From the NCBI RefSeq assembly GCF_029227855.1, contig NZ_CP074356.1: DNA of 64,000 bases; one strand, 5' to 3'. The DNA comes from Escherichia coli. GTDB taxonomy: Bacteria; Pseudomonadota; Gammaproteobacteria; Enterobacterales; Enterobacteriaceae. The translations under genes and the position numbers were made by a program. The notes under the pieces are model-generated. The model saw nothing but the letters and a program-made list of their open reading frames with translations, ran no database searches and was not told the DNA's origin. Of this stretch, positions 299 to 61,678 are shown piece by piece; positions within the stretch are counted from its first letter, which is position 1; each line of letters starts with the position of its first letter.

Positions 299-886
299 AT
301 GAGCCATGTCTGGGGACTGTTTTCCCATCCCGATCGTGAAATGCAGGTGATTAATCGTGAAAACGAAACGATTTCTCATCACTACACCCACCACGTTTTG
401 CTGATGGCGGCGATTCCGGTGATTTGCGCCTTCATTGGCACTACACAGATTGGCTGGAATTTTGGCGATGGCACTATTCTGAAGTTATCCTGGTTTACCG
501 GACTGGCGCTGGCTGTCTTGTTTTACGGCGTTATGCTGGCTGGGGTCGCGGTGATGGGGCGGGTCATCTGGTGGATGGCGCGCAATTACCCACAGCGTCC
601 GTCACTTGCGCACTGCATGGTCTTCGCGGGCTACGTTGCAACTCCGCTGTTTTTAAGCGGTCTGGTGGCGCTTTATCCGCTGGTCTGGTTGTGTGCGCTG
701 GTCGGCACGGTGGCGCTGTTTTACACCGGCTACCTGCTTTATCTCGGTATTCCGAGCTTCCTGAATATCAACAAAGAGGAAGGCCTTAGCTTCTCCAGTT
801 CGACGCTGGCGATAGGCGTGCTGGTGCTGGAAGTGCTGCTCGCCCTTACCGTTATACTATGGGGTTACGGTTATCGTTTGTTCTAG
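299..886 (+). CDS. yohC: Inner membrane protein YohC (Yip1 family)
   Basis: ORF 275-886; internal start MSHVWGLF gives 195 aa, matching the length I recall for K-12 YohC; multiple hydrophobic segments. Confidence 0.85.
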   Translation: MSHVWGLFSHPDREMQVINRENETISHHYTHHVLLMAAIPVICAFIGTTQIGWNFGDGTILKLSWFTGLALAVLFYGVMLAGVAVMGRVIWWMARNYPQRPSLAHCMVFAGYVATPLFLSGLVALYPLVWLCALVGTVALFYTGYLLYLGIPSFLNINKEEGLSFSSSTLAIGVLVLEVLLALTVILWGYGYRLF

Positions 887-1059
887 AAAGTTCTTTTGTG
901 TTGCATTGCTGGCGTAAATGTCAGCAATGCAGCATTTCCTCACGATTCTCCTTTGACGATCGCACTTTTTGCTCGTTATGATGGCGTCGCTAGCCTCAGT
1001 AAATCCTTACTCCGGCGGTGCGCAACCCGTGCGCGTGAACCACTATCTGAATGCTCATC

Positions 1060-1992
1060 ATGCCGAAATTTCGAGTTTCTTTATTTAGCCTGGCCCTGAT
1101 GCTGGCTGTGCCTTTGGCACCGCAGGCCGTTGCGAAAACGGCAGCCGCTACCACCGCTTCACAGCCGGAAATTGCCTCCGGTAGCGCGATGATTGTTGAT
1201 CTGAATACCAACAAAGTGATCTATTCGAACCACCCGGATCTGGTGCGTCCGATTGCGTCTATCAGCAAATTAATGACCGCGATGGTCGTGCTGGATGCGC
1301 GACTGCCGCTGGATGAAAAACTAAAAGTGGATATCAGCCAGACGCCGGAGATGAAAGGGGTCTATTCGCGCGTACGACTGAACAGCGAAATCAGCCGTAA
1401 AGATATGCTGTTGTTGGCGCTGATGTCTTCAGAAAACCGCGCGGCGGCAAGCCTTGCGCACCATTATCCCGGTGGTTACAAAGCCTTTATTAAGGCGATG
1501 AATGCGAAAGCGAAATCGCTCGGAATGAACAACACGCGCTTTGTTGAACCGACCGGATTGTCGGTGCATAACGTTTCAACCGCCCGTGACTTAACCAAAC
1601 TGCTCATTGCCAGCAAACAATATCCGTTGATCGGGCAGTTAAGTACTACCCGGGAAGATATGGCAACCTTCTCTAACCCGACGTATACGCTGCCATTCCG
1701 CAATACTAACCATCTGGTGTATCGCGATAACTGGAATATTCAGTTAACCAAAACCGGCTTTACCAATGCGGCGGGCCATTGTCTGGTGATGCGTACGGTT
1801 ATCAATAATAAACCGGTGGCGCTGGTAGTGATGGACGCGTTTGGCAAATATACCCATTTTGCCGATGCCAGCCGCCTGCGTACCTGGATTGAAACCGGTA
1901 AAGTGATGCCTGTTCCGGCAGCAGCGTTGAGCTATAAAAAACAAAAAGCCGCCCAGATGGCGGCGGCGGGGCAGACGGCACAGAACGATTAA
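1060..1992 (+). CDS. pbpG: D-alanyl-D-alanine endopeptidase (PBP7)
   Basis: ORF 1051-1992; start [25 protein letters not shown] (signal peptide) gives 310 aa; SxxK motif [12 protein letters not shown]. Confidence 0.9.
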
Positions 1993-1999
1993 ATGAATG

Positions 2000-2033
2000 A
2001 CGGATGGCGATACTCTGCCATCCGTAATTTTTA
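2000..2033. terminator. Hairpin between convergent pbpG and dld (acggatggc / gccatccgt) followed by AATTTTT
   Basis: 9-bp inverted repeat with 8-nt loop read directly; T-run on + strand. Confidence 0.55.
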
Positions 2034-3746
2034 CTCCACTTCCTGCCAGTTTTTCCGCTTACTGGTTTTACCGATCCCCGGATTCATGCTGTTGGTCGGA
2101 TCGTTCTCGCGATAAAACTTCTGCAACGTCTCCGGTGCTTTATACAAATGACCGACGTTATGCTCGGCAGGGTACTGCGCGCCGCGCTGCTGTAGCAGTT
2201 CCAGCATCTGTTCTTTCAACGCATGCACATCCACGCCTTTTTTAACGATGTAATCCTGATGGAAGACATAGCACATAAAATGGCCGTAATAGAGCTTGTG
2301 CACCAGCTGGCTGTCGATGTCCGGCGGTAAATGCTCATACCACTCGGTGTCGTTACGCCGCAGAGCGATATCCAGTGCCAGAATGTCTTCGACTTCATCG
2401 GAATGCACCGCCTGATAACGAATTGCTGCGCCCGCAGCGGCGAAACGGTGTAAAAACGCTTTGCTACCTTCCTCCGGCGTACAGACAAAGAAATCGCCTT
2501 CGGCCTGTTTGAAATAATCCACCAGCCACGATTTGGCTTCACCGACGCCATCGCCCGCCATTTTTAACAGCAGATGATGCTCGTATTTATCGCGCCAGTT
2601 TTTCATGCGCGGCGGTAAATGGCTGGGGAACAGGTGACCGAATTTTTGCATCGCACGGTCGGTAAAATGCGGACGGAAGAATTTCACTTTCTCCAGCATC
2701 GCATCGGTGCGCCCCTTGAGATTAAAGAAGAACGGCATCTTGTCGGTGCCTAACTTATCAATCATCAGGAAGGTGTCTTTGCCGTATTTTTCCGCAATAT
2801 CGTAGATATCCCGGTGCATATATTCCCCGGCAACCGGCAGATTTTCGAAATTAGCCAGAATATGACGGCGGATTTCGGTCAGCACTTCCGGCTGGTTGGT
2901 ACCGATATAAAACACCTGCTGATTTTTTTCCGCTTCGAAGGTATCAAGACGTACCGCAAAGACGGCCAGCTTCCCGGCGCAACCAGAAGATTCAAATAAC
3001 CGATCCGGATCGGCGTTATAACGTGCGGGCGTGTCGGCTTCAATATCACGAACGCGGTGGACATAGTCATAATCGTGGGCGTGACGACCATCGTGACGCA
3101 CATCGTCATCTTTGATGCGATCGTCATCCAGCTTGCTAAGGATCTGCTCCGGCGTTTCGCCGAGCTCAATCCCCAGATGGTTCACCAGCGTCAGCTTGCC
3201 ATCTTCATTTATACGCGCGAATAACGACATTTCGGTATACGCCGGGCCACGTTGCACCAGTGAACCACCAGAGTTATTACAGATACCGCCGATAACCGAT
3301 GCGCCTATACACGATGATCCAATCACCGAGTGCGGTTCGCGTCCCAGCGGTTTGAGGGCTTTTTCCAGCGAATAGAGCGTGGTGCCCGGATAGGCCAGCA
3401 CCTGTTCGCCCTTGCCAAGAACGTGCAGCTTGTCGAGACGCAGGGTGCTGATGATCACGATATCGCGATCATAGTCGTTACCGTTTGGCGTCGAGCCTTC
3501 GGTCAGACCTGTATTGGCAGCCTGCATCAGAATAATTTTGTCGGCGGTGACGCAGGCTTTCAGCACCCGCCACAATTCCAGTAGTGAGCCAGGGAAAACG
3601 ACAGCCAGTGCGTCGCCCTGACCAGAACGGAAGCCCTTGCGATAGCGGGCCGTTTTTGCGGGATCGGTGAGCAGGTGTGAAGAACCCACCAGTCGGGCAA
3701 GTTCATTCAAAAAGGCTTTATTATCAGTTGTTGTCATGGAAGACAT
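2031..3746 (-). CDS. dld: FAD-dependent D-lactate dehydrogenase
   Basis: ORF 2031-3779; start MSSMTTTDNKAFLNELARL gives 571 aa as in K-12 Dld. Confidence 0.9.
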   Translation of the reverse strand: MSSMTTTDNKAFLNELARLVGSSHLLTDPAKTARYRKGFRSGQGDALAVVFPGSLLELWRVLKACVTADKIILMQAANTGLTEGSTPNGNDYDRDIVIISTLRLDKLHVLGKGEQVLAYPGTTLYSLEKALKPLGREPHSVIGSSCIGASVIGGICNNSGGSLVQRGPAYTEMSLFARINEDGKLTLVNHLGIELGETPEQILSKLDDDRIKDDDVRHDGRHAHDYDYVHRVRDIEADTPARYNADPDRLFESSGCAGKLAVFAVRLDTFEAEKNQQVFYIGTNQPEVLTEIRRHILANFENLPVAGEYMHRDIYDIAEKYGKDTFLMIDKLGTDKMPFFFNLKGRTDAMLEKVKFFRPHFTDRAMQKFGHLFPSHLPPRMKNWRDKYEHHLLLKMAGDGVGEAKSWLVDYFKQAEGDFFVCTPEEGSKAFLHRFAAAGAAIRYQAVHSDEVEDILALDIALRRNDTEWYEHLPPDIDSQLVHKLYYGHFMCYVFHQDYIVKKGVDVHALKEQMLELLQQRGAQYPAEHNVGHLYKAPETLQKFYRENDPTNSMNPGIGKTSKRKNWQEVE

Positions 3747-3941: not shown

Positions 3942-6239
3942 ATGAAATGGCTATGTTCAGTAGGAATCGCGGTGAGTCTGGCCCTGCAGCCAGCACTGGC
4001 GGATGATTTATTCGGCAACCATCCATTAACGCCCGAAGCGCGGGATGCGTTCGTCACCGAACTGCTTAAGAAAATGACAGTTGATGAGAAAATTGGTCAG
4101 CTGCGCTTAATCAGCGTCGGCCCGGATAATCCGAAAGAGGCGATCCGCGAGATGATCAAAGACGGGCAGGTTGGGGCGATTTTCAACACCGTAACCCGTC
4201 AGGATATCCGCGCCATGCAGGATCAGGTGATGGAATTAAGCCGCCTGAAAATTCCTCTTTTCTTTGCTTACGACGTGCTGCACGGTCAGCGCACGGTGTT
4301 CCCGATTAGCCTCGGTCTGGCCTCGTCTTTTAACCTCAATGCGGTGAAAACAGTCGGGCGTGTCTCTGCTTATGAAGCGGCAGATGATGGCCTGAATATG
4401 ACCTGGGCACCGATGGTCGATGTCTCGCGCGATCCGCGCTGGGGACGTGCTTCCGAAGGTTTTGGCGAAGATACGTATCTCACCTCAATAATGGGTAAAA
4501 CCATGGTGGAAGCGATGCAGGGTAAAAGCCCGGCAGATCGCTACTCGGTGATGACCAGCGTCAAACACTTTGCCGCTTACGGCGCGGTAGAAGGCGGTAA
4601 AGAGTACAACACCGTCGATATGAGTCCGCAGCGCCTGTTTAATGATTATATGCCGCCGTACAAAGCGGGGCTGGACGCAGGCAGCGGCGCGGTGATGGTG
4701 GCGCTGAACTCGCTGAACGGCACGCCAGCCACCTCCGATTCATGGCTGCTGAAAGATGTTCTGCGCGACCAGTGGGGCTTTAAAGGCATCACCGTTTCCG
4801 ATCACGGCGCAATCAAAGAGCTGATTAAACATGGCACGGCGGCAGACCCGGAAGATGCGGTGCGCGTGGCGCTGAAATCCGGCATCAACATGAGTATGAG
4901 CGACGAGTACTACTCGAAGTATCTGCCTGGGTTGATCAAGTCTGGCAAAGTGACCATGGCAGAGCTGGATGACGCTGCCCGTCATGTACTGAACGTTAAA
5001 TATGATATGGGGTTGTTTAACGACCCGTACAGCCATCTCGGTCCGAAAGAGTCTGACCCGGTGGATACCAATGCCGAAAGCCGCCTGCACCGCAAAGAAG
5101 CGCGTGAAGTGGCACGCGAAAGCCTGGTGTTGCTGAAAAACCGTCTCGAAACGTTACCGCTGAAAAAATCAGCCACCATTGCGGTGGTTGGGCCACTGGC
5201 GGACAGCAAACGTGACGTGATGGGAAGCTGGTCCGCAGCCGGTGTTGCCGATCAATCCGTGACCGTACTGACCGGGATTAAAAATGCCGTCGGTGAAAAC
5301 GGTAAAGTGCTGTACGCCAAAGGGGCGAACGTCACCAGTGACAAAGGCATTATCGATTTCCTGAATCAGTATGAAGAGGCGGTCAAAGTCGATCCGCGTT
5401 CGCCGCAAGAGATGATTGATGAAGCGGTGCAAACCGCGAAACAATCTGATGTGGTGGTGGCTGTGGTCGGTGAAGCTCAGGGGATGGCGCACGAGGCTTC
5501 CAGCCGTACCGATATTACTATTCCGCAAAGCCAACGTGACTTGATTGCGGCGCTGAAAGCCACCGGTAAACCGCTGGTGCTGGTGCTGATGAACGGGCGT
5601 CCGCTGGCGCTGGTGAAAGAAGATCAGCAGGCTGATGCGATTCTGGAAACCTGGTTTGCGGGGACTGAAGGCGGTAATGCAATTGCCGATGTGTTGTTTG
5701 GTGATTACAACCCGTCCGGCAAGCTACCGATGTCCTTCCCGCGTTCTGTCGGGCAGATCCCTGTGTACTACAGCCATCTGAATACCGGGCGTCCGTATAA
5801 TGCCGACAAGCCGAACAAATACACGTCGCGTTATTTTGATGAAGCTAACGGGGCGCTTTATCCGTTCGGCTATGGTCTGAGCTATACCACTTTCACCGTC
5901 TCTGATGTGAAACTTTCTGCGCCGACCATGAAGCGTGACGGCAAAGTGACCGCCAGCGTGCAGGTGACGAACACCGGTAAGCGCGAAGGGGCGACGGTAG
6001 TGCAGATGTACTTGCAGGATGTGACGGCTTCCATGAGTCGTCCGGTGAAGCAGCTGAAAGGCTTTGAGAAAATCACCCTGAAACCGGGCGAAACTCAGAC
6101 CGTCAGCTTCCCGATTGATATTGAGGCGCTGAAGTTCTGGAATCAACAGATGAAATATGACGCCGAGCCTGGCAAGTTCAATGTCTTTATCGGCACTGAT
6201 TCCGCACGCGTTAAGAAAGGCGAGTTTGAGTTGCTGTAA
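3942..6239 (+). CDS. bglX: Periplasmic beta-glucosidase (glycoside hydrolase family 3)
   Basis: ORF 3870-6239; start MKWLCSVGIAVSLALQPALA (signal peptide) gives 765 aa as in K-12 BglX. Confidence 0.9.
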   Translation: MKWLCSVGIAVSLALQPALADDLFGNHPLTPEARDAFVTELLKKMTVDEKIGQLRLISVGPDNPKEAIREMIKDGQVGAIFNTVTRQDIRAMQDQVMELSRLKIPLFFAYDVLHGQRTVFPISLGLASSFNLNAVKTVGRVSAYEAADDGLNMTWAPMVDVSRDPRWGRASEGFGEDTYLTSIMGKTMVEAMQGKSPADRYSVMTSVKHFAAYGAVEGGKEYNTVDMSPQRLFNDYMPPYKAGLDAGSGAVMVALNSLNGTPATSDSWLLKDVLRDQWGFKGITVSDHGAIKELIKHGTAADPEDAVRVALKSGINMSMSDEYYSKYLPGLIKSGKVTMAELDDAARHVLNVKYDMGLFNDPYSHLGPKESDPVDTNAESRLHRKEAREVARESLVLLKNRLETLPLKKSATIAVVGPLADSKRDVMGSWSAAGVADQSVTVLTGIKNAVGENGKVLYAKGANVTSDKGIIDFLNQYEEAVKVDPRSPQEMIDEAVQTAKQSDVVVAVVGEAQGMAHEASSRTDITIPQSQRDLIAALKATGKPLVLVLMNGRPLALVKEDQQADAILETWFAGTEGGNAIADVLFGDYNPSGKLPMSFPRSVGQIPVYYSHLNTGRPYNADKPNKYTSRYFDEANGALYPFGYGLSYTTFTVSDVKLSAPTMKRDGKVTASVQVTNTGKREGATVVQMYLQDVTASMSRPVKQLKGFEKITLKPGETQTVSFPIDIEALKFWNQQMKYDAEPGKFNVFIGTDSARVKKGEFELL

Positions 6240-22275: not shown

Positions 22276-25200
22276 TTAATGGAAAATGACGTCGGGTGCG
22301 CTTAACGCTTCACTCAAATCAAACACATCAAGTTCGGCAAAAGTGACAGATTTATTGTCACGGTATACATGAAGAGAACGGAAGCTCATTAGCGCTTTGC
22401 TATCAACATTGTAGTGGTTAAAACCGGATGAAAACTTAAGGACCAGCCGGTACTCGCCCAGGTCATAGACAAATGCATTCTCATAGCCTGACTCCCAGCC
22501 TTTGTATCGCATTCCCATAAGTTGCCCAACGGTAGCAGATTTACCTTCCCAGCGATTCAAACTATTACTGGCTGACTCGTCAGGCGTGAGCAGTACTGTG
22601 CGCCGTGCCAATTGGCGAAAAGGCGGCATAATTTCGTAATCGGCAAAAAGCTGTGCAAACTCACTGCGCATTTCTGCTGCCATTTCTAACGGGTGGGCAA
22701 TGCCAATCAGAGCATCGGCAGGCAGGTCAATTGGCTCATCTTGCTCATTGCAGAACTCCCCCTCAGCGGCCACACGAAAGGCGTTGAGTAAACGACGCGG
22801 TTCATTTGCCGGATAAACACCCCATATTAATCGCTGAGTAACCAGACGGGTAAAGGGATGATTAACAAACAGAGAATGAAAATCTGCCAGCGACCAGCGT
22901 CGGGTGGTGCGCAGGGCAGTTTCAAGACGCGGGAGCAGGTTTTTGCTCACCTGAGTGGCATCTTTTTTTAGCCCTTTTAGTCGGGCCAGTGCCTCGGGTG
23001 CTTTCAGTTGATCGTCATCGGCGCGCAACCGGGGAACGCTTTTCTGGCGAACGTTTTGCTGATCAAAGATAACCGGGTTAAGGTTTTCATCGAAGCGAAC
23101 GGTAAATTGCCGTGGACCAAAATCAAAAATCAACGCCTGCGGATCATCAAGACCCAGTGTTGGGACTAATCTGTCCGCTAACTGTTCCTGGCTTAGCCCT
23201 CGATTTTCTGCGACCACCTGAAGAAATTCCGCCGCGTTATCACGTAAGGGGCGGGATTTCGCCCGTTGCGATATATGATGCAGCTGTATCAGTGCCATAT
23301 CATTATTCATCTGAGTAAGTATGTTCAGGCCGCTGACGGCACGGGCAGATTTGCCTTCCTGTGGCCAGGCAAGGATCTGTGTCGTCAGATCCCGTGCCGT
23401 GCTTTCGTCGCCAAAGAGACTTAACGCCAGAAATGCCCAGTTGTCTTTTGCGGGAGCACCAGCTTGTTGCCACGCGGTGAAAAGATCCCAGGCAAAAGCT
23501 GCCAGCGTTTGCGGCTGGCAGAAAGTTTTCAGTTGTTCCAGTCCGCTATAAACGTCCGCCCTGGGTAAAGCGCAGCATTTCGCCGATAATTTCCAGTGCG
23601 TCATCGGTAACAGGCTGATTATTCGTGATAAGGCGCGGCCTGGACCACATTGCCGGCTGCCAGAAATCAGGGGCTTTTGGAATGCGTGTCGGGTAAATCT
23701 CTATTGGACTCTGTTTAAGTAAATGCTCCAGGGCAGGCCATACATCTGTACGCTGCCAGCGGTTTGCCGCGGTTTGCAGCAATTCACCATGTCCCTGTTC
23801 GTAAAGTAAACGTAGGGCAAGTAATGCAGCTTCGCTATTATCGCTGGATTTGGTGAAGACAAGAGGGATAAGTGCAGTAGCCGTATGTTCCGGCCATTGT
23901 AAAATCCACTGGCGAGCCAGATCACGCTGCGCCGCGAAACGTCGCCAGACGCGGGCAACGGGCAGGGCCAGTTCTGTTGCGCCAAAATTTAAAATTAACG
24001 GAAATGTTTCTTTTGGACGATATGAAAAAGCCAACAGCAGACCTGGTAGAGCATCCAATCCGAAGATACTGAGAAAATAGTCCTCACCCGCTAACAGATG
24101 CTTTTTCTCATTGATACGTAGCCAGAAAGTCAAAGCCATCTCACGCGGCAACTGTGCCAATAAATACAGGTTCCAGATACTCTTTTCCCGACGATAGCGT
24201 GAGTAGCTGTCATTTTCCCATATGTTAATTAACACTTCTACGTGACCGCTGCGAAGCGCCTGTTCTGCTAATTGTGCTTCCGGGGAGTTCCAGCCATTCA
24301 GGATCTCTTCAACCCGCCCCTGGTAGTAATGCCACTGAACAATGAGTGAATTGCGTGCAGCATCCAGTTTTCCGGGGAGTATATAATTCAGAAACAGCCA
24401 TACATCATCTCCAAAACCCAGCTCCTGTAGTACAACTCGTCCACTTTTATGTTCCATGCGTTCCGAAAGAGATTCCGTGCTGAAATAACGGGCAGACTCA
24501 GTGGCGGCAAGCCTCTCTCGTTCGCCTGGTTGCCAGTAAACTTGCGGCGTTAATTCGAACGGTGCCAAATCAAGACGTGGAACTGTCATTTTTTTCTTAC
24601 TACGCCACGGTGGTGAAACGAGGATTTCAGGCATTTGGCTGTTATCGGTGCTATCAATAACCGTTTTAGGCGGTGCCGATAAATAACTATTCAGCACTGA
24701 CCGGGCTTGAGTACTTAACCACGGCATCACCTCTTCTGCCAGTTGTGGCTGCGATGCCATCAGCGTTTGTAACAGCGTACGCCAGTATTCATCACGTGCT
24801 TTTTGCTGTGCAGGCAGCTTTTTGTCTTCGATGATTGGATAACCAGGGCGCGTAGGTGGTTCTTTTAGCGCCAGCAGTTCTGCCAGTGCGGCAAGCGTCG
24901 CATGGGGGAAATTTTTACTGTATTTAGCTACACGTTGCAGGCTGGGTTTGTTTTTATCAGCAACTAACAGCAGGGTGCGGATGACCTGCGGATGGTTAAT
25001 TTGTACCAGCAGACTGCCGCAATCTTCTTTATGGGCATACATTGCCAGGCGTGGAACGGCTGCCAGTCCTTGTTCGCGCAAAAGGGCAGCGCAGGCCGCG
25101 TAGCCGAAGTGGTTTTCATGCGACATGTAGCTGGCTTCCCGATCGCTAAATATATCCTGGCTCCAGTAGCGTTCGAGTTTTCTCACCGCTCTGGGGTCAA

Positions 25201-25906
25201 TAGCAACAACTTTTAACCACTCCTTAGAATGAAAATGAGTCCACGGGCATTCAAGGCTTACCAACTCATTGGCGATTTCTGGTTTTTCCGGGAGGATCAG
25301 AGCAATAAAAGGGCGGCGAACTTTGGTTATTCCTGGCAGTGCGGCAATGAGTTTGTCGGCGCAACGCTGCCAGCTGCTTTCCTCTGCCAGAGAGAGATGC
25401 TTACGCAGTCGGAGATCGAATTCGTTATAGGTTTCTGATCGATAACCATAGCCATAATCCTCGTTCTGATACTGCAATGTCACTAGCAGAGGATCACTTT
25501 CATAACATCGTGTAATAAACTGGCGTGCAATCACCACCTCAGTCGCATATTCCAGTCCCTCTTGTTGGACGATTTCGTCGAGCAACTGTTGGCTATCATT
25601 TTGCGCGATACAGGCTAGCGCCGCCATTGTCCGGGCCGGAACTGAGGGTTTGTGTTCGCCAATCAAGTTGATGGCCTGCGTAATGGCCGACTGCCACTCC
25701 AGTGAAAAATTTTCATAACGCCAGACAATGTTTTTTTTCTTCTCAGCTTTTTGTAGCAATTCATCACCCAGTGTCTGGATGAGGCTTTCAGTGATAACAG
25801 GCACCGGTTCGCCCGGCCAACTGCGATGGCTGAGCGGCGTTTTGCCTTTTTTATATTTCAGTTCCACTTGGGCGTTATCCGCCAGCCACGGTAATTCCTT
25901 GTCCAT
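22276..25906 (-). pseudogene. yehI: yehI (MolR-family paralog lacking the N-terminal WGR domain) split by a frameshift near 23546-23604
   Basis: ORF-track pieces 23546-25906 and 22276-23604 are in different frames; start MDKELPWLADNAQ; both halves align with the two upstream paralogs across the break. Confidence 0.65.
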
Positions 25907-25915
25907 GCTCTTTCC

Positions 25916-25990
25916 TTATTCAAACAGGGCTTCAATATCGTTAATGAGTTCGCTGGCGGTGATGTCGTCGAGCACGGAGAACTGCGCTTC
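25916..25990. repeat. Near-identical 3' gene-end tract shared by paralogs B and A (partner at 29723-29800)
   Basis: Includes the identical 27-nt run tcgttaatgagttcgctggcggtgatg. Confidence 0.7.
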
Positions 25991-28900
25991 CTGAGTTGAA
26001 TTACTCCCCCAGCCATAGCTTTCCGCTTTGCCTTCCCATAGCCACAGCTTGCTTAAGACCTGCTCAGCGCTAAGATCGGCTGGTGACATACCCACCGCAA
26101 AACCTTCGTCGATTTCCATGATTAACGACCAGCGACCGAGAGGTTTGATCATCCATCCGATCCAGCCTCCATCCTGTGGTTCGCCCTTTATCCAGCCTTT
26201 ATTTGCCAGCCCCATGACCCGGCCGCTCGGGCATTTTCTGCCTGCCCAGCGGGTCAGTTCGCTGGCGTTGCGCTCGGCTTCTGTCAGGGCGTAACTGTTA
26301 CGTTCAAGCTGACGGAACGGTGGTAGCAGTTCGTAGTCGGCAAAAAGCTGACCAAAGGCGACAGCATCCGTCGGTGATATTTCCAGAACGTGAGGAATGC
26401 CAACAGAGATATCGCCTTCCTGCAAGGTGAAAAGATCATCGTCAGCGGTGCTGTAGCTGTTATCTTCCGCCACCCTAAAGCACGCCTGTAGCTGGTTTTC
26501 GGCGCTATAAACGCCCCAAATCAGACGGCGGGTTAAGTGACGAACCAGCGGATGCTCAACCAGGAAGAGCTGAAAGTTTTCCGGCGACCAGCGGCGGCGC
26601 AGGCACATGGCGGATTCCAGCCTTGCTACCTGCTGGGCGGCGACGGTACGCGCATCTTTTTTCAGCAATTTGTAGCGGTTAACAGCATCGTTTGCCTGTG
26701 ATTCATCATCGCTTTTATTGGGTTTAGGTAAGTCTTTCAGGCGGCTGCCGGAAACATCGCGCACAAACGGTTTTAAGGTTTCATCAAAGCTGACGGTGAA
26801 CTGCCGTGGGCCAAAATCCAGCAGCAGCGAACCGTTATCATCCAGACCGAGAGCCGGTGCTAACCGATCTTCAAGCTCCGCTACCGTCAGTTCGCGACTT
26901 TCGGCAATGTCGGCAATTTTCTCTTTCGCCCGCTCCTGTAATGCTTTGAATTTCAGTTTCTGGGCAATGCCGTTAAGCTGCATCAGGGCGATATCACTAC
27001 TGATAGCGGCGAGGATATCCAGCCCGACGGTGGCGCGTTTATGCTGGGATTCACCAGGCCAGGCGCGTATTAATGGCGTCAGTTTGCGGGCGGTGTTATC
27101 GTTACCGAGAACGCCTAACGCAGTGAACGCCCAACTCTCTTTCGACGGCGCGCCAGCGGTCTGCCAGGCGGTAAACAGATCCCAGGCAAATTCAGCCAGT
27201 GAGTCGGCGGTACAGGCATCTTTCACCTGCAATAATCCCGGATACAGCGCCTCCTCCTGATGGAAGCGGAGCATTTCACCGAGGTGCTGGAGTGCGCTAT
27301 CGGGCAGTGATTGGGCATTTGCTTTTAATACCGGGCGGGTCCAGATCGATGGCTGATAAAAGGCCGGAAGAGTGGGGATTTTTGTCGGGTGATTATCTAA
27401 GGGATCGAGCGCAAGCATAGCGTTCACCGCATTTGTTACTTCCGGCTGGTTATAACGCCGGGCGATTTCTTGCAGTAATGGTTGATGACCGTTTTCGGTA
27501 AGCATACGCAATGCAGCGCGGGCGTTATCCTGTGCTTCACCGGCTTTGCCGAGCGCCGCAGACAGCAGGCCGGTAATGGCGTGTTCCGGGTATTTCAGCA
27601 GCCAGGTGCGGGCGTCTTGTCGTAGGGTTTTGAGTTTGTTGAAGGCGCGGGCGACGGCAGGTGCCAGCTCACTCGCTGCGAAGTAATTCGTTATGGGCAA
27701 GGCTTCCTGTGGATAGCGTGCAAGTGAGTTTACTAACCCAGGTAATCCTTTGAGTCCAAAATGTAACATGGCGTATTCGGTATCGGTATGCGGAGATAGA
27801 GTAAGGGCATTCCATGCTCTTACTGCTTTCTCCAGCGGCAATGTTGTCAAAATCCCCAAATGCCAATAATGCCCGGTAGGTGAATGAAACACCTTAAATT
27901 CACTTATTAAAGTTGAATAATCTTCATTTAGCCATGCCTCAACTACCGCTTCGGGAGCTTTAATATATGTACCAGCGATCCGTCGTTGAAAACCCATCCT
28001 TGCCAACAGATTGGCAGTACTTTCTTCATGACTAACCGTGATGTGTTTTGAATACCAGATATATTTCGCCAAAAGTTGATTACTGATTTCTTCTGTCAGA
28101 TAACTGATTGGCTCAATACCTAATGGTGCTAAATCAAGCACTGGAATCGGCGATTTTTTCTTTTTCGAAAGCCATGGTGGGGAGACTACTATGGCCGGCA
28201 GTAGATCGGCGCTGGCATGGTTTGAGGGCTGTGTCAGTTGTTGCTGGCATGATTTCAGCACTGCAACTGCGGGTGTCGAAAGCCAGGGAATGACCTGTTC
28301 TGCTAGTGTCGGTTGCGAGATAAGCATCGTCATTAGCATAATGCGCCAACTATTCTCTTCTTTTTGCACTAGAAGTTCCGCCAGTGCTGCCAGTGCTGCG
28401 TGTGGGAACGCAGCGCAGGCTTTCGTCATTCGATCGTGACAGCGTTTAGTATGCCCTGCTACACGTATAAGCAGTGTTAATGCGAACGGATGATTGATAT
28501 GACGCAACACATCGGCGCAGTAGTCACTTGCGACATAGGGAGCAAATCGGGGCAGGGCCGCAACACCTTGCTCCTGTAATACGGTGGCTGACCATATCGC
28601 ACCACAATAGTAATCATCAAAAATGGCATATGGCTCGTGATATTTTTCTAATGAGGCAAGAATGTGCTCATCAGTCGCCACTATTTTTAGCCACTCCAGC
28701 GAGGGTAATTTCTTTTGCCCCAGTAGACGCTGGGCAATTTCATGTGCAATTTCTGGTTTTTCGGGCAATAACAAAGCAATTAATGGTTGCCGCCATTCTG
28801 GAATATGTGGAACTGCGGCAATAAGTTTTTGTGCACATTTTTGCCAGAGAGACTCTTCCGCCAGTGATAAATGTTTACGTAGGCGTAATTCAAAGCTGGA

Positions 28901-29710
28901 ATATTGCTGCAAATAATCAGGTGAAATGCCAGACGACAGGAAAACAATATTATTGTTGACATAATCCCATTCAATAGATATTTGTTGAAGATGTATTATT
29001 ACATCAGTAGCATATTCCAGACCGCCTTCCTGAATAATCTGATCCATAACATCCGCACGCTCTTTATATCTCGTGCAGTGCAGTTCAAGTGCCGCGAGTA
29101 CAGCCATTACCGGTGATGGTAATTTTGTCGTTTTCGGGCTGTTAATCAGATCGATCGCCTGAGCGATGAAGTTTTGCCACTCTAAAGTACAGGCGCTGAA
29201 GTCAAATGTAGCTGTTTTGTTATCCCGTTGCGACACGCCACAGGCTAAGCGACGTAACTGGGTTAATTTATCTACAGGTGTAACAGGATCTCCGGGAAAG
29301 CGGCGATGGCTTAAGGTGGTGGGTACGACTTCAAGCGGAAAAACGACAGCAATATCTTTTGCCAGCCACGGTAAAATAACGTCTGTATTTTTGTCAGCCA
29401 CGTAGAATTCTGGTGTAACTGAGGGCTGTTCCTGAATGATGGTAGAAAAGTCAGATAATTCGAGAGATTTCGTTACCGTTCGAGTATGTTTCGATGTAGC
29501 ATTCTCCGCATGTTCCACATACCCCTTTTTCGTTTTCTCCGCAATCAGCTTGAGTTCCGCTTTTTCCGCCGCCGCAGCATCTGCAAAGCTTTTTACCTGA
29601 CTTTGCCCGTTGGTGCCGACTTTGCCCCAACTGATATTCAGTTCGTTTCCCTGCTGCTCCACCGCCCAGAATTTATGTGATTTTTCGTCCTGATAAATAT
29701 AGGTTTTCAT
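25916..29710 (-). CDS. MolR-family protein, paralog B (N-terminal WGR domain, DUF4132-type C-terminal region), 1264 aa
   Basis: Start MKTYIYQDEKSHKFWAVEQQGNELNISWGKVGT (WGR motif); ends ITASELINDIEALFE; SD overlaps the stop of paralog A. Confidence 0.8.
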   Translation of the reverse strand: MKTYIYQDEKSHKFWAVEQQGNELNISWGKVGTNGQSQVKSFADAAAAEKAELKLIAEKTKKGYVEHAENATSKHTRTVTKSLELSDFSTIIQEQPSVTPEFYVADKNTDVILPWLAKDIAVVFPLEVVPTTLSHRRFPGDPVTPVDKLTQLRRLACGVSQRDNKTATFDFSACTLEWQNFIAQAIDLINSPKTTKLPSPVMAVLAALELHCTRYKERADVMDQIIQEGGLEYATDVIIHLQQISIEWDYVNNNIVFLSSGISPDYLQQYSSFELRLRKHLSLAEESLWQKCAQKLIAAVPHIPEWRQPLIALLLPEKPEIAHEIAQRLLGQKKLPSLEWLKIVATDEHILASLEKYHEPYAIFDDYYCGAIWSATVLQEQGVAALPRFAPYVASDYCADVLRHINHPFALTLLIRVAGHTKRCHDRMTKACAAFPHAALAALAELLVQKEENSWRIMLMTMLISQPTLAEQVIPWLSTPAVAVLKSCQQQLTQPSNHASADLLPAIVVSPPWLSKKKKSPIPVLDLAPLGIEPISYLTEEISNQLLAKYIWYSKHITVSHEESTANLLARMGFQRRIAGTYIKAPEAVVEAWLNEDYSTLISEFKVFHSPTGHYWHLGILTTLPLEKAVRAWNALTLSPHTDTEYAMLHFGLKGLPGLVNSLARYPQEALPITNYFAASELAPAVARAFNKLKTLRQDARTWLLKYPEHAITGLLSAALGKAGEAQDNARAALRMLTENGHQPLLQEIARRYNQPEVTNAVNAMLALDPLDNHPTKIPTLPAFYQPSIWTRPVLKANAQSLPDSALQHLGEMLRFHQEEALYPGLLQVKDACTADSLAEFAWDLFTAWQTAGAPSKESWAFTALGVLGNDNTARKLTPLIRAWPGESQHKRATVGLDILAAISSDIALMQLNGIAQKLKFKALQERAKEKIADIAESRELTVAELEDRLAPALGLDDNGSLLLDFGPRQFTVSFDETLKPFVRDVSGSRLKDLPKPNKSDDESQANDAVNRYKLLKKDARTVAAQQVARLESAMCLRRRWSPENFQLFLVEHPLVRHLTRRLIWGVYSAENQLQACFRVAEDNSYSTADDDLFTLQEGDISVGIPHVLEISPTDAVAFGQLFADYELLPPFRQLERNSYALTEAERNASELTRWAGRKCPSGRVMGLANKGWIKGEPQDGGWIGWMIKPLGRWSLIMEIDEGFAVGMSPADLSAEQVLSKLWLWEGKAESYGWGSNSTQEAQFSVLDDITASELINDIEALFE

Positions 29711-29722
29711 TGCAAAGTCCTT
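29590..29722. repeat. Near-identical 5' gene-end tract shared by paralogs B and A (partner at 33388-33520)
   Basis: Includes the identical 37-nt run ctccaccgcccagaatttatgtgatttttcgtcctga in both copies. Confidence 0.7.
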
Positions 29723-32700
29723 TTAATCAAAAAGTGATTCGATGTCGTTAATGAGTTCGCTGGCGGTGATGGCATCAAGCGCGGAGAACGTGAGCGAGGG
29801 CTGTGTACTGTAGCGTTCCCCTGGTGAAGTGATTTTTACGCTTTCAACAGGTAGCAGGTCGCTATACCCCGTTTCGCCATAAATTAATGAAAAATGTTCT
29901 GTTTCAAGTTCGAGAGCGCCATAAGGGGTAGATTTGCGCATCGCATAGACGCTGCCGCTTTCTTCCAGACGTTGCCAGCCTCGACGTTCCAGCCCGACAA
30001 TGCGCCCGGCCTGGCAAAGACGTCCTTGCCAGCGTATCAATTCATGGGTATCACGTTCATTATCAGTAAGGTGGTAATAACCACGATCGAGTTGGCGAAA
30101 GGGAGGAAGCTTTTCGTAATCAGCATAAATTTGCCCAAATGCAGTGGCGGATTCAGGAGATATTTCCAGCACATGCGGTATACCGATGTTTCCTGCTGGC
30201 AGCGTGAATAACTCATCCTGCGCATCGCTGTAAGTGCTGTCTTCTGCGACCCGGAAGCAGGCGATCAGCGTGTTTTCCTCAGTATATACCCCCCATAACA
30301 CCCGTCGGGTTAAGTGACGTACCAGCGGATGCTCCACCAGAAACAGGCGGAACTGCTCTGCCGTCCAGCGTCTGCGCTGGCACATATCCTGCTCCAGACG
30401 ATCAATCTGCTGGCTGGCAATGGCGTGCACATCTTTCTTCAATTGTTTGAAGAGGTTAACGGAGTCAGTTGCCAGTGTTTGATCATCGCTCTGATTTGGT
30501 TTGGGTAAATCTTTCAGGACTTTGCCGTTTGCATCGTGCACTACAGGTTTTAAGGTTTCGTCAAAACCAACGGTGAATTGACGTGGGCCGAAATCCAGTA
30601 TCAGCGAGCCACTGTTATCAAGCCCTAAATCTGGAGCCAGGCGGTCTTCCAGTTCAGCCATAGTCAGCCCACGGTTTTCAGCAACTATGTTGATTTTCTC
30701 GCGGGCATGTTCCTGTAATGCTTTGAATTTAATTTTTCGCGCGATGCCATTAAGCAGCATTAGCGCAACATCGCTGCCAATATCAGCTAATACATCCAGC
30801 CCGTAAACCGCGCGTTTATGCTGGGATTCACCCGGCCAGGCACGGATAAGCGGGGTTAATTTACGTGCGGTGTCGTCATTGCCTAAAATCCCAAGCGAAG
30901 TAAATGCCCAGTTTTCTTTTGCGGGTGCGCCAGCTTCTGTCCATGCCGTGTAGAGATCCCAGCCAAAGTCAGCCAGTGATTCGTGGGTGAAGGTCTCTTT
31001 GATGGTCGCCAGCCCAGCGTAGGAGGTAATGTCGCGTGGAAAGCTCAACATTGTGCCCAGGTGGCGCATAGCGTCATCTGGCAGAGGCAGGTTGTTACTT
31101 TTAAGCCGTGGTCTGCGCCATAAGGTGAACTGATAAAAGCCGGGCAGTGGGGCGATTTTAGCGGGATATTCTTCCAGCGGATCGCTATCGAACAATGTTG
31201 CCAGCGCAGCTAAAACATCAGGTTGGTTGTATCTCCGGCCGATTTCTTCAATCGTTTCTCGCTGGTTTAATTTCACTAGCAGGCGGAATGCCTGGCGGGC
31301 ATATTCCCGATTTTGGCACGGTTTGCCCAGCGCCAAAGGCAGTAGCCCGGCGGCGGCATGGCGCGGGTTATTTGCCAGCCAATTAATGGCATCCTTGTAA
31401 GCCATTTTTTTCTGTAACCGCTGCGCCATTGGTAAGGCTAGTTCACTGGCCCCAATAAAGAGGGTGAATATCCACAGTCGTTGATGATCTCGTTGCAAGC
31501 AGGTCATAAACGCAGGAATGGCCGTACTACCAAAAACTGCCAGAATCTCTTTCTCACCTGAATATCGCTCCTCAATGATTATTTGGTTGAGAAATGAAAT
31601 CGCCTGTTGTCCCGGTAAGTAACAAAGCGCAGATAGATTCCAGCTTTTGTTGGCATTGTTGTGATATTTCGCAAACTCAGCTTTTAGTGCTGGAAAATCA
31701 AAGCGCAACAAGGCATCAACAGCGCTTTGCGGTATATATTTTTTTTCATGTAAGTCATCTTCGCAATGCAGCCATTCATTAAAACCTAATTGCCAAAGGA
31801 TTTGTTGTTCTGGTGTAAAAGGAATGAAAGATGTCTCCCAGCTTTCTTTTTCAATTAGTGGCAGGTCGGTAAATAAGGTTTGCTGTGATGACTGATATTG
31901 CGCGATTTCACTGAATCTGGATATGTCAGTATGACTGATTAACTCTGTAATTCCTGGCGTGATGTCAGTGACTGCAGGGATGGGAAGCACCGGTAAATCA
32001 AATACGGGTATTACATTCGTTTTCTTATTTATTACCCACGGTGGAGCGACAAATAGCTCCGGCAACATATCCGCAGTGGCGTATTCACATTCTTCAGCGA
32101 CTAACTGAGTACGACATTCAGATAAGATGCCTGCCGCTTTAGCATTAACCCAGGGAATGACGTCAGTGACTAAATCTGGCGTGGCGGTAATCAGTTTGAC
32201 AAGCGCTTTACGCCACTGTGCATCTTCATGTATTGCCAGTAAAGTTGCATAAGCGGCAAGAGCCGCAGCGGGATGTTTTTGACAGGCTTTGCTTAAGTAT
32301 TCCAGGTGCTTTTTCTTGCCAATTACACCGAGGATCAGAATTTGAATCGCATCCGGGTGATTCGTTTTCCATAGCCATTTGACAAGATCTTCAGTCTCGC
32401 TGATGCGCTCGAAGAGATAAGTGGGATTGTCAGAATGCTCTTCCGTAAACTCAAGAAGTATCCGGCTTACACCGCGCACCCCATTATTTGCCAGCAACAT
32501 TGCCAGATAAGCGCGAAAATCATGATACAACGGTGGGAAGTCGTATTTTTCTGCTGTAGTCAGAGCGGCGTCATCGGTTACCACCAGTCTTAACCAGGTC
32601 ATCGCCGGAACGTTTTGATCTGCATAACGTAGCGCCATAGCATTGGCAATATCCGGGCGTTCAGGGAGCAGTAACGCCGCAAAAGGTTGCCGTGCTGGGG

Positions 32701-33520
32701 ATAGCGAGGGAATAGCAGCGAGAACTTTATCTACACAGCGTTGCCACTCATCTTCTGAAGCGAGTGAAAGATGATGACATAGACGTTGATGCCAGTTCGG
32801 TAGTGATTCTGCTTTGAGATCAGGGGGAATAATGGTGGTGACGTCGGCTTTTACTGGTTTATATTTGAGTTGAAGAGCGAGAAGGGCGATTTCAACGGTA
32901 GTTTCCAGACCACAGCGAATGACTAAGTCATCGACCAGTTCATCTGTAGAGTAAGAGTTCCATAAATTCCAGAGCAATGCCGCATCAGATTGTATACTTC
33001 CTGTTTGTTGATTATTCAGAATTCGCCTTTGTAACTCGGCAAACGCCAGCTGCCAGTTTTCAGGATAAGAGCGGTAATTATTGTCGGGGTCATATGCCCT
33101 GGTGTTATTCGCGATGCGCTTCCATATTTGGCCATCTTTGTACAGATAATTGATCTCTCTGGGGCGAGAGCGATGAGGAAAAGCAAATCGATTAATATCG
33201 CCAGTTACCGGAATGACTGCATCATCAGCCACCCATGGGCGTTTGTTTTTACTCTCAGGGGAGGTTTCAACTTCAGGAGTGGCTTTGGTGATGGGGGGGA
33301 TATGCACGTTTGCTAAAGCATTTTCCACATAGCCTTTTTTCGTTTTCTCTGCGATCAGCTTAAGCTCCGCTTTTGCCGCTGCCGCAGCATCCGCAAAACT
33401 TTTTACCTGGTTTTGCCCTTTGGTGCCAACTTTTCCCCAACAGATATGCAACTCGTTTCCCTGTTGCTCCACCGCCCAGAATTTATGTGATTTTTCGTCC
33501 TGAAAGATAAAGTGCCTCAT
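29723..33520 (-). CDS. molR: MolR-family protein, paralog A (N-terminal WGR domain, DUF4132-type C-terminal region), 1265 aa
   Basis: Start MRHFIFQDEKSHKFWAVEQQGNELHICWGKVGT; ends ITASELINDIESLFD; first gene after the IS200. Confidence 0.8.
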   Translation of the reverse strand: MRHFIFQDEKSHKFWAVEQQGNELHICWGKVGTKGQNQVKSFADAAAAAKAELKLIAEKTKKGYVENALANVHIPPITKATPEVETSPESKNKRPWVADDAVIPVTGDINRFAFPHRSRPREINYLYKDGQIWKRIANNTRAYDPDNNYRSYPENWQLAFAELQRRILNNQQTGSIQSDAALLWNLWNSYSTDELVDDLVIRCGLETTVEIALLALQLKYKPVKADVTTIIPPDLKAESLPNWHQRLCHHLSLASEDEWQRCVDKVLAAIPSLSPARQPFAALLLPERPDIANAMALRYADQNVPAMTWLRLVVTDDAALTTAEKYDFPPLYHDFRAYLAMLLANNGVRGVSRILLEFTEEHSDNPTYLFERISETEDLVKWLWKTNHPDAIQILILGVIGKKKHLEYLSKACQKHPAAALAAYATLLAIHEDAQWRKALVKLITATPDLVTDVIPWVNAKAAGILSECRTQLVAEECEYATADMLPELFVAPPWVINKKTNVIPVFDLPVLPIPAVTDITPGITELISHTDISRFSEIAQYQSSQQTLFTDLPLIEKESWETSFIPFTPEQQILWQLGFNEWLHCEDDLHEKKYIPQSAVDALLRFDFPALKAEFAKYHNNANKSWNLSALCYLPGQQAISFLNQIIIEERYSGEKEILAVFGSTAIPAFMTCLQRDHQRLWIFTLFIGASELALPMAQRLQKKMAYKDAINWLANNPRHAAAGLLPLALGKPCQNREYARQAFRLLVKLNQRETIEEIGRRYNQPDVLAALATLFDSDPLEEYPAKIAPLPGFYQFTLWRRPRLKSNNLPLPDDAMRHLGTMLSFPRDITSYAGLATIKETFTHESLADFGWDLYTAWTEAGAPAKENWAFTSLGILGNDDTARKLTPLIRAWPGESQHKRAVYGLDVLADIGSDVALMLLNGIARKIKFKALQEHAREKINIVAENRGLTMAELEDRLAPDLGLDNSGSLILDFGPRQFTVGFDETLKPVVHDANGKVLKDLPKPNQSDDQTLATDSVNLFKQLKKDVHAIASQQIDRLEQDMCQRRRWTAEQFRLFLVEHPLVRHLTRRVLWGVYTEENTLIACFRVAEDSTYSDAQDELFTLPAGNIGIPHVLEISPESATAFGQIYADYEKLPPFRQLDRGYYHLTDNERDTHELIRWQGRLCQAGRIVGLERRGWQRLEESGSVYAMRKSTPYGALELETEHFSLIYGETGYSDLLPVESVKITSPGERYSTQPSLTFSALDAITASELINDIESLFD

Positions 33521-33617
33521 TCTGCATCCCTGTAATTTTATCCAGTTGAATGCTGATGCTACCAGTATTTATGCGGGTTAGAGAGAGACAAAATCGCAAG
33601 AAAACAACTTTAGGAAT

Positions 33618-34326
33618 TTATAAATAAATATCCTCCGGCATAGCCGGAGGTTTTTCAAATGCGCCTATAAGGCTCTCTTACCAGCCGCGCCCTAACAGGC
33701 GCACACGATCTGACATTTGCATCCAACTTCGTTACTTACGGCCCGTAAACGGGCTGCCCGGATAGGGAATCGATAACTGCTCTCCCATTTTATCCTCTTC
33801 AAGCTGGTGCTTTATGTAATCCTGTATCTTCGCCGTGTTCTTACCCACCGTATCGACGTAATACCCTCTGCACCAGAACTCCCTGTTCCTGTATTTGAAT
33901 TTCAAATCACCAAACTGCTCGTAAAGCATCAGACTGCTTTTCCCTTTCAGATATCCCATAAAGCCTGATACGCTCATTTTGGGCGGGATCTCCACAAGCA
34001 TATGGATATGATCTGCACAGCATTCAGCTTCCAGAATCCGTACACTTTTCCACTCACACAGCTTTCTCAAAATACAGCCTATTGCTCTACGCTTCTCTCT
34101 GTAGAACACCTGTCTTCGGTATTTTGGCGCAAATACTATGTGATATTTACAGTTCCATCGGGTGTGCGCTAAGCTCTTTTCGTTCCCCATTGGGACCCCC
34201 TTTTGATTTCTTGTTTGACACTTGCAGTTGCCAGACCGCAAGGTGTTTTAACAAATCAAAAGGGGTTTTAATAACTGGCTCAAAGCTGAAAGCTTTCCGG
34301 AACCCCCAGCCTAGCTGGGGGTTTTC
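33618..34326 (-). mobile_element. IS200 insertion sequence (IS200/IS605 family); boundaries approximate
   Basis: Contains a Y1 HUH transposase gene; perfect hairpin cccccagc-cta-gctggggg at 34303-34321; 13-bp inverted repeat ccccttttgattt/aaatcaaaagggg (34197-34265) over the tnpA start; IS200 has no terminal inverted repeats, so ends were set by the expected ~0.7 kb size. Confidence 0.6.
33732..34190 (-). CDS. tnpA: IS200 transposase TnpA (Y1 HUH transposase, 152 aa)
   Basis: MGNEKSLAHTRWNCKYHIVFAPKYRR...HIHMLVEIPP (HUH motif); ORF track extends upstream to 34241 via an alternative start; start coordinate uncertain by about 1 nt. Confidence 0.85.
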   Translation of the reverse strand: MGNEKSLAHTRWNCKYHIVFAPKYRRQVFYREKRRAIGCILRKLCEWKSVRILEAECCADHIHMLVEIPPKMSVSGFMGYLKGKSSLMLYEQFGDLKFKYRNREFWCRGYYVDTVGKNTAKIQDYIKHQLEEDKMGEQLSIPYPGSPFTGRK

Positions 34327-45186: not shown

Positions 45187-45279
45187 TTTCACAACGTTAT
45201 TGTAATACCGCCGTTTTTCCCCGTTTACAACGCGTGCGCTGGACATTACCATCCTCCTCTGCGATTTATTATCGCAACC

Positions 45280-45408
45280 AAACGACTCGGGGTGCCCTTC
45301 TTTGTGAAGGCTGAGAAATACCCGTATCACCTGATCTGGATAATGCCAGCGTAGGGAAGTCACGGACCACCAGGTCATTGCTTCTTCACGTTATGGCAGG
45401 AGCAAACT
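45280..45408 (+). ncRNA. TPP riboswitch (THI element) in the thiM leader
   Basis: aaccaaacgactcggggtgccc...ggctgagaaatacccgtatcacctgatctggataatgccagcgtagggaa carries the conserved CUGAGA THI-box core, directly upstream of thiM. Confidence 0.85.
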
Positions 45409-61644: not shown

Positions 61645-61678
61645 GAAACAGATGATAACCTTAATAAATGCAGCTGTA

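Follow-up and report, generated by a model that had tools for sequence, protein, structure and literature searches.

In the 64,000-nucleotide stretch of Escherichia coli DNA analyzed here (contig NZ_CP074356.1 of assembly GCF_029227855.1; hereafter the window), two tandem genes of the MolR/YehI family, referred to as paralogs A and B, lie on the minus strand between metG and yehI and resemble each other far more at their ends than in their middles. The annotated gene order on that strand is metG, an IS200C copy, B, A, yehI, yehK, yehL, yehM, yehP and yehQ, and RefSeq names both A and B as DUF4132 proteins. The 7.6 kb that hold the two genes are 100% identical to E. coli strain JNEC-KY178. In the following, we argue that the uneven similarity has two causes, namely purifying selection that acts unevenly along the proteins of the whole family, and exchange between the paralogs within the ~200 nucleotides (nt) encoding the N-terminal WGR domain, and that the molR gene of K-12 appears to be a product of recombination in this same block.

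Genes and Features of the Locus

29723-33520, minus strand: paralog B, an intact open reading frame (ORF) of 1265 amino acids (aa) with WGR, alpha-solenoid and DUF4132 regions; first gene of the array
33318-33521, minus strand: 5' homology block of B, which encodes the WGR domain and matches the A copy at 86% identity, with a 39-nt exact run at 33465-33503
30998-33325, minus strand: variable part of B, about codons 66-841, with E. coli alleles 84-100% identical at the nt level
30038-30997 (approximate bounds), minus strand: conserved C-terminal half of B, the counterpart of that of A
29723-29789, minus strand: 3' homology block of B, with a 27-nt exact run at 29745-29771
29711-29722, minus strand: B-A spacer of 12 nt, AAGGACTTTGCA, carrying the ribosome-binding site of A
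25916-29710, minus strand: paralog A, an intact ORF of 1264 aa with WGR, alpha-solenoid and DUF4132 regions; ortholog of K-12 molR
29508-29711, minus strand: 5' homology block of A, WGR-coding, with the 39-nt exact run at 29655-29693; site of exchange and of the B::A junction
27221-29515, minus strand: variable part of A (codons 66-830), comprising a disordered linker and then the N-terminal two thirds of the alpha-solenoid
26261-27220, minus strand: conserved C-terminal half of A (hereafter C-half), codons 831-1150, with the last solenoid repeats and DUF4132, ~70% identical to B in nt
25916-25982, minus strand: 3' homology block of A, its last 67 nt, 85% identical to B, with a 27-nt run at 25938-25964
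25907-25915: A-yehI spacer of 9 nt
22276-25906, minus strand: paralog C, which is yehI, frameshifted here (ORFs of 786 and 442 aa) and without a WGR domain
14874-21319, minus strand: yehL, yehM, yehP and yehQ, encoding a MoxR-type AAA+ protein (frameshifted), a DUF5682 protein (internal stop), a VWA protein and a SWIM protein

Given the short spacers, A, B and yehI are packed as one operon. By blastn, A is 92.1% identical in nt over its full length to K-12 molR (the pseudogene yehF + yehH) and yehI is 94.7% identical to its K-12 counterpart, while no full-length counterpart of B was found in K-12. In this strain, A and B are intact, and yehI (frameshift), yehL (frameshift) and yehM (internal stop) are pseudogenes.

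Identity Profile of the Two Paralogs

The preliminary description of this DNA had reported perfect runs of 37 and 27 nt common to A and B, and both are present. Each string occurs exactly twice and at equivalent positions of the two genes (29657-29693 and 33467-33503 for the longer one, 25938-25964 and 29745-29771 for the shorter one), and neither would be expected in shuffled sequence. The full extent of the 5' run is 39 nt, from nt 18 to nt 56 in A and B alike. With 28 mismatches spread over 203 nt, the probability of meeting a run of 37 nt or more is about 0.05-0.06, and for the 27-nt run, given 18 mismatches in 75 nt, it is 0.0016. The ends are indeed similar, but calling them almost identical, as had been done, overstates the case, since A and B differ at 19 of the first 130 nt (85.4% identity), identity is 86.2% over the first 195 nt, and at the other end 18 mismatches leave just 76% over the last 75 nt, with 17 of the last 25 aa identical. 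A repeat finder delimited 5' blocks of 204 nt at 86%, 3' blocks of 67 nt at 85%, and C-half repeats at 68-73%.

In sliding windows, aa identity is 80-90% over codons 1-60, and across codons ~66-830 the two genes are mostly 30-55% identical in nt and 10-53% in aa. Similarity rises again in the C-half, as had been noted before, with ~70% nt identity over nt ~2500-3440 and 60-87% aa identity over codons 842-1140, and there is a second dip at codons ~1157-1230. A weakly similar core therefore exists, but it is not confined to the ~200 poorly alignable codons of the preliminary description: it spans most of codons 66-830 and includes islands at 40-50% identity. Identity along A and B is thus strongly non-uniform, and the objection that it might be even along the genes falls away.

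Purifying Selection and Exchange at Silent Sites

Silent sites were compared by the Nei-Gojobori method. For the A-B pair of the window, the proportion of synonymous differences (pS) in the WGR-coding codons 1-65 is 0.45, with 0.68 synonymous (dS) and 0.07 nonsynonymous (dN) substitutions per site. In the C-half (codons 831-1150), pS is 0.68-0.74 and saturated, with dN of 0.19-0.25; in the variable middle it is 0.73-0.77, likewise saturated, with dN of 0.64-0.90; and in the last 25 codons it is 0.50. Because the synonymous sites of the C-half are saturated, its similarity is that of anciently diverged genes under purifying selection, and there is no conversion in the C-half. The paralog arrays of Massilia have the same protein-level profile, in which the WGR domain, the C-half and the C-terminal motif are kept and the N-terminal solenoid is variable, with uniform pS along the genes, and the mosaic is therefore first of all a family trait. 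One cause of the mosaic is thus family-wide uneven purifying selection, under which the WGR domain, the C-half and the C-terminal motif are retained and the N-terminal two thirds of the solenoid evolve fast.

The second cause emerges from a set of 7 alleles of A and 6 of B, with both genes drawn from one genome where possible (E. coli of this window, 2022H047, an ST131-type strain and O157:H7; E. whittamii; Escherichia sp. E1V33; and MOD1-EC7003, A only). In the WGR codons 1-65, mean pS is 0.46 between A and B, 0.31 within A and 0.33 within B, compared with 0.71, 0.25 and 0.24 in the C-half and 0.47, 0.30 and 0.30 in the last 25 codons. At the ends, the paralogs thus have more silent diversity within each of them and less between them, a pattern that fits exchange and not codon constraint. 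In addition, fixed differences between A and B number 3 in the first 200 nt, none of them beyond nt 15, and polymorphisms common to both paralogs number 16; for the C-half, the corresponding counts are 124 and 42 (Fisher p = 7.5e-7). Some of the shared variation spans several sites: the haplotypes AAAACGAAAAA and AAGGTGAAGAA at about nt 174-184 segregate within A, while all sampled B carry AAAACGAAAAA, and a change from AGT to AAC at nt 80-82 is common to the A and B of O157 and unique to them. A-B pairs from the same genome are slightly more alike than other pairings (P = 0.022). In neighbor-joining trees, A and B separate cleanly in the C-half and are intermingled in nt 16-195, where the topology also differs between nt 16-105 and nt 106-195.

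These results demonstrate inter-paralog exchange in the WGR-coding ~200 nt at the 5' end, and the case for exchange at the 3' end is weaker. The exchange is patchy and mostly old and does not amount to ongoing homogenization, and neither the run permutation nor the comparison of same-genome runs supported long recent conversion tracts between A and B. Three further candidates were considered. Concerted evolution at the species level was rejected: with 84% identity over their 5' ends, A and B of E. whittamii resemble each other no more than they resemble the E. coli copies. A 3' conversion tract in A of the window has weak support, from two linked B-like sites (GAACTC), and the other "B-like" 3' sites of this A are also present in A of E. 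whittamii. Constraint from ribosome-binding sites does not lie behind the 3' conservation, given that both sites come after the stop codons.

Taken together, we conclude that A and B are two ancient tandem paralogs heading the yeh operon, and that their WGR blocks of ~200 nt have in Escherichia been repeatedly swapped by homologous recombination in short patches. Such patch exchange maintains ~86% identity in the block, whereas silent sites elsewhere in the genes are saturated.

Hybrid Genes and the History of the Array

Recombination within the WGR block is also recorded in strains that carry one gene fewer. K-12 molR opens with B-type codons (MRHFIY...), keeps to a B haplotype as far as about nt 165 and is A sequence from there on, and the two-gene strains EC1722-1, T309.Ta3 and TUM12368 have differing B-type 5' haplotypes on one A-type body, that of T309 being identical to the B haplotype of 2022H047. 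The switch from B to A in these hybrids lies between about nt 105 and 195 of the gene. A query consisting of the metG-molR spacer joined to the opening 600 nt of K-12 molR was searched against 5426 complete E. coli genomes and matched contiguously in 3720 of them (~69%); elsewhere the match breaks off where the WGR block ends, at nt 337. A query specific for the B middle was found in 1643 of the same 5426 genomes, and the two numbers together account for nearly all of them.

The three-gene array is taken to be ancestral, because B, A and yehI all occur in E. whittamii and Escherichia sp. E1V33, because homologs of B are on record for E. fergusonii and E. marmotae, and because B is saturated relative to A. 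Recombination within the WGR block, with loss of one 3.8-kb unit, gave rise to the two-gene state. In the proposed mechanism, the block would have served as the crossover site between the B and A copies, a repeat-unit deletion would have yielded the B::A hybrid, and the array of this window would be the older state from which the "molR" of K-12 derives. The K-12 reference molR thus appears to be a hybrid of two ancient paralogs, besides being a pseudogene, and a literature search found no paper that describes it as a hybrid. Hybrid molR and the ancestral three-gene array matter for pangenome and orthology calls at this locus.

K-12 yehF (positions 4475-4530 of locus L002) further has AGG (Arg) at the conserved Trp codon of the WGR "KFW" (TTCAGGGC vs TTCTGGGC), where every other A or B allele has Trp, and this codon is a further lesion of the K-12 pseudogene. 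Lesions are also found in other strains: K-12 molR is broken, B of 2022H047 is frameshifted, O157 has an internal stop and a truncated A, and a further O157 strain has an IS1203 insertion. The yeh locus decays often. A resistance transposon is present here in sublineages of sequence type 131 (ST131), for which the locus has been reported as an integration site of such transposons (PMC9334617).

Allelic Mosaics and Regional Divergence

A of the window and A of ST131 differ with dS of 1.3-3 over codons 66-520, 0.84 over codons 521-830 and 0.21 over codons 831-1150, and the core of the ST131 allele resembles that of Escherichia sp. MOD1-EC7003. Directly after the WGR domain, there are at least three or four classes of A that are essentially unalignable with one another; the middles of B have 84-100% identity within E. 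coli. Alleles of A are therefore mosaics in which ancient variable modules stand between conserved flanks. In all segments and allele pairs dN/dS is 0.04-0.69, with the top values (0.24-0.69) in the linker, so that positive selection is not in evidence at this resolution. The conserved flanks also act as homology arms through which whole variable solenoid modules, as old as the differences between species, are swapped between strains. A useful point about the locus is thus the great depth of its allelic classes within one species, with variable modules framed by conserved recombination arms.

The first array slot of MOD1-EC7003 (positions 641-3544 of locus L010) holds a fourth paralog without WGR, 39% identical to B and 45% to A, indicating that paralogs turn over within the genus.

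Divergence from K-12 is not limited to A and B. The metG-yehQ stretch is 92-97% identical to K-12, vs. 98-99% from yehR on (yehR, yehS, btsR and btsS). The divergent block covers 14874-37646, from apbC/metG to yehQ, and may stem from imported DNA, from hitch-hiking in the neighborhood of the O-antigen region or from the phylogroup being a divergent one. No base-composition anomaly was found, GC content being about 45-56%.

Protein Architecture

The architecture of the proteins consists of an N-terminal WGR domain, a disordered linker, a long HEAT/ARM-like alpha-solenoid, a DUF4132 region, and a short C-terminal motif. In A, residues 7-69 match Pfam WGR (PF05406, E 1.1e-17) and residues 988-1173 match Pfam DUF4132 (PF13569, E 3e-51); B is annotated with PF05406 and carries PF13569. 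The family profile matches PDB 2ra8 (2.4e-21) and the WGR domain of PARP3 (8e-4), and the AlphaFold2 model of A has a predicted local distance difference test score of 85. The 3' homology blocks encode the family-wide C-terminal motif ITASELINDIExLF, for which an alignment of 51 sequences gives the consensus LSxLDxIxASELI(R/N)D(M/I)ExL with 2 invariant and 3 nearly invariant positions. Homologs of B include many Escherichia alleles at 83-100% aa identity.

Searches for known systems returned little. None of A, B, YehI, YehK, YehL, YehM, YehP and YehQ had a match in PADLOC-DB v2 at E ≤ 0.01. With NCBIfam, only the WGR part matched (an unrelated Leptospira family), the AAA+ and VWA matches being weak and below curated cutoffs. 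A literature search on DUF4132, yehI, yehLMPQ and the combination of WGR, SWIM and MoxR found reports on regulation only, and no functional or evolutionary study.

The Operon across Phyla and Its Possible Function

Downstream of the paralogs, YehL is annotated as a MoxR-type AAA+ protein and YehP as a VWA protein, and by Pfam YehM has DUF5682 and YehQ a SWIM finger. A wider scan with one genome per species returned 63 loci, most of which have at least one DUF4132 gene directly upstream of yehL, yehM, yehP and yehQ homologs. The source taxa include Erwinia, Iodobacter, Massilia/Duganella, Cupriavidus, Xanthomonadales, Myxococcota, mycobacteria and others, and the tandem DUF4132 copy number ranges from 1 to 8 or more. 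The arrays of Massilia (loci L014, L019, L024, L030, L031, L033 and L035) and Duganella (L013 and L026) have 3 to at least 8 paralogs, some of them without WGR and some with split or truncated ORFs; wherever downstream sequence was covered, these arrays adjoin yehL homologs (and yehM/yehP where covered). In every phylum sampled, yehLMPQ thus form a conserved core downstream of the paralog array, and an operon of "n × DUF4132 paralogs + YehLMPQ" offers a handle on a five-component system that recurs across phyla.

The variable solenoid could be where interchangeable subunits, acting as adaptors or sensors for a conserved YehL, YehM, YehP and YehQ machine, bind their partners. Such interchangeability of the solenoid subunits would account for the varying copy number and the varying alleles.

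Several observations concern regulation. A LexA-box-like motif of the form CTG-N10-CAG (CTGGATAAAATTACAG, 33530-33545, minus strand) ends 10 nt upstream of the B start codon, and the same 3' part of the box, which is the only part that was read, stands ahead of molR in K-12. The literature lists molR in the SOS (LexA) regulon (PMC6590174), and reports that its promoter is activated by BglJ-RcsB (PMC3950696) and that yehL and yehM are derepressed in hns/stpA mutants (PMC3686432). The LexA-like box, the WGR domain and the SOS listing are hints of a link to DNA damage. It is conceivable, though we regard it as rather doubtful, that the yeh locus is an undescribed and widespread system, in which a conserved YehLMPQ machine is combined with an expandable WGR-solenoid-DUF4132 specificity or sensor array; that the array might be directed at damaged or foreign DNA is suggested by the three hints just named. 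If so, the recombination-prone conserved ends would allow the repertoire of subunits to be reassorted.

Other features lie near the array. The IS200C copy between metG and B (33732-34323) comprises tnpA (33732-34190) and a match to Rfam STnc490 (34200-34323, 146 bits); a copy is also present in strain 2022H047 and absent from the ST131, O157 and K-12 loci. In the yehK-yehL spacer, the Rfam OrzO-P antitoxin RNA is matched at 21431-21506 on the minus strand (101 bits). This RNA is that of the zorO/orzO type I toxin-antitoxin system, which was reported between yehI and yehL in O157:H7, with MG1655 lacking it (PMC2887945). Unrelated matches above the Rfam gathering score are the CyaR small RNA (61561-61646), a thiamine pyrophosphate riboswitch 5' of thiM (45278-45374) and the Peptidase-S11 RNA motif (975-1055).

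Weighing the Explanations

The explanation that we favor combines domain constraint, 5' exchange, deletion to a hybrid, allelic modules and the putative adaptor role of the solenoid, and we assign it as a whole a probability of roughly 0.7. Several points weigh against it. With 14% of sites (dS ~0.7) still different between the 5' blocks, any exchange must be old or confined to short patches. The 39-nt run is barely beyond chance, and as it falls in codons 6-19, selection for an A/T-rich, unstructured 5' coding sequence could have fixed the same codons in both genes. When run lengths at silent sites were permuted, the outcome was marginal (P = 0.04) and the top-ranking run reached across the artificial junction of two concatenated segments, and the longest runs are not longer within than between genomes (P = 0.37). 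The allele sample is small (13 A/B alleles and 4 hybrid genes), and the A alleles of the window and of locus L003 are identical at the 5' end. At the 3' end, the evidence is thin, consisting of the two linked sites mentioned above. Some of the polymorphism may belong to the region and not to this locus in particular, given the diverged metG-yehQ stretch, and the diversity of hybrid 5' haplotypes could stem from one deletion followed by ordinary allelic recombination instead of several deletions. Finally, the fact that yehI, yehL and yehM are pseudogenes in this strain weighs on the adaptor or sensor part.

Some of these points would equally suit an explanation by constraint only, in which the WGR domain and the C-terminal motif are under purifying selection, codons or mRNA are constrained near the start codon, and no DNA passes between the paralogs. 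Domain and motif are indeed kept family-wide, the Massilia and Duganella arrays reproduce the protein-level profile with uniform pS, the 39-nt run is A/T-rich and nearly invariant in all alleles, and the run-length tests are marginal. However, constraint on codons should lower silent diversity within each paralog as well, and this is higher at the ends than in the C-half (0.31-0.33 vs. 0.24-0.25), with a lower pS between paralogs, which speaks against codon-level constraint alone for the 5' tract. Nor does it account for 16 shared polymorphisms with no fixed difference after nt 15 (p = 7.5e-7), for shared haplotypes of several sites or for incongruent trees, and the hybrid genes prove recombination in the WGR block. 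We consider constraint only to be improbable. The recombination proposed in the preliminary description thus stands for the 5' WGR block and for conserved flanks that frame exchangeable cores, and fails for the C-half, which is explained by purifying selection.

That description had also likened the locus to diversifying receptor or immunity genes. In its strong form, this would be a programmed cassette system that actively shuffles or hypermutates the variable cores, comparable to pilin antigenic variation or the targets of diversity-generating retroelements. Tandem copy numbers of 1 to 8 or more across taxa, the deep allelic classes of E. coli, the very divergent fourth paralog in the first slot of MOD1-EC7003 and the frequent pseudogenization and insertions would be in line with it. 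However, all copies are full-length with their own start codon and ribosome-binding site, without silent cassettes; dN/dS is 0.04-0.69 in every segment and pair; the saturated silent sites of the core make its divergence ancient and not ongoing; none of the eight yeh proteins tested has a PADLOC match; and the locus annotation includes no reverse transcriptase or recombinase, its sole transposase gene being that of the IS200 copy. We therefore hold programmed diversification to be very unlikely, and with dN/dS below 1 in every segment and no match to a defense family, the comparison with receptor or immunity genes remains conjecture. Still less credible is a recent tandem duplication whose middle diverged fast under positive selection while the ends stayed unchanged. 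The tandem arrangement, the near-equal lengths (1264 and 1265 aa) and the similar ends might suggest it, but silent sites are saturated in the middle and in the conserved C-half alike (pS 0.68-0.77), the paralogs are already distinct in E. whittamii and E1V33, B is also present in E. fergusonii and E. marmotae, and dN/dS is below 1.

Comparison with Known Systems

A shares its N-terminal WGR domain of ~70 residues with PARP1-3 and with bacterial MolR-like proteins, the WGR being described as a DNA-binding domain of MolR-like factors (PMC7824862). Unlike PARPs, MolR/YehI proteins have no PARP catalytic domain, and yehI and several Massilia paralogs are without WGR altogether.

The operon as a whole bears resemblance to the ternary conflict systems built on MoxR AAA+ and VWA proteins (PMC7159879), with which it has in common a MoxR-type AAA+ (YehL), a VWA protein (YehP), variable multi-copy partners, and a sporadic spread over Proteobacteria, Myxococcota and Actinobacteria. 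The account of those systems by Kaur et al. (2020) makes no mention of SWIM, Yeh or DUF4132 (PMC7159879). By Pfam or NCBIfam, no VMAP component or recognizable effector domain was detected at the yeh locus, and the variable partners of yeh differ in being alpha-solenoid proteins without a predicted enzymatic domain. Neither PADLOC nor NCBIfam has a system-level match for the yeh operon.

With the molR-yehI locus of K-12, the window has in common the slot between metG and yehK-yehLMPQ and the Pfam WGR and DUF4132 domains, and it differs in having an intact A and an extra full-length paralog B upstream.

The genes at this locus are already annotated, and the processes proposed here, i.e., domain constraint, patchy gene conversion and fusion by unequal crossover, belong to textbook evolution. 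Partial conversion or fusion between tandem paralogs is well known from the concerted evolution of tufA and tufB in enterobacteria, from the delta-beta fusion of hemoglobin Lepore and from the hybrids of red and green opsin genes. Common to these cases and to A and B are paralogs that have diverged except in a short block of high identity, polymorphisms found in both copies with no fixed differences, a hybrid produced by deletion of exactly one repeat unit, and copy-number polymorphism in the population. By contrast with the tuf genes, which are near-identical, the A/B block is only 86% identical, and exchange is limited to ~200 nt (about 5% of the gene), patchy and mostly old. In a further difference from the known fusions, the hybrid at the yeh locus is the majority allele.

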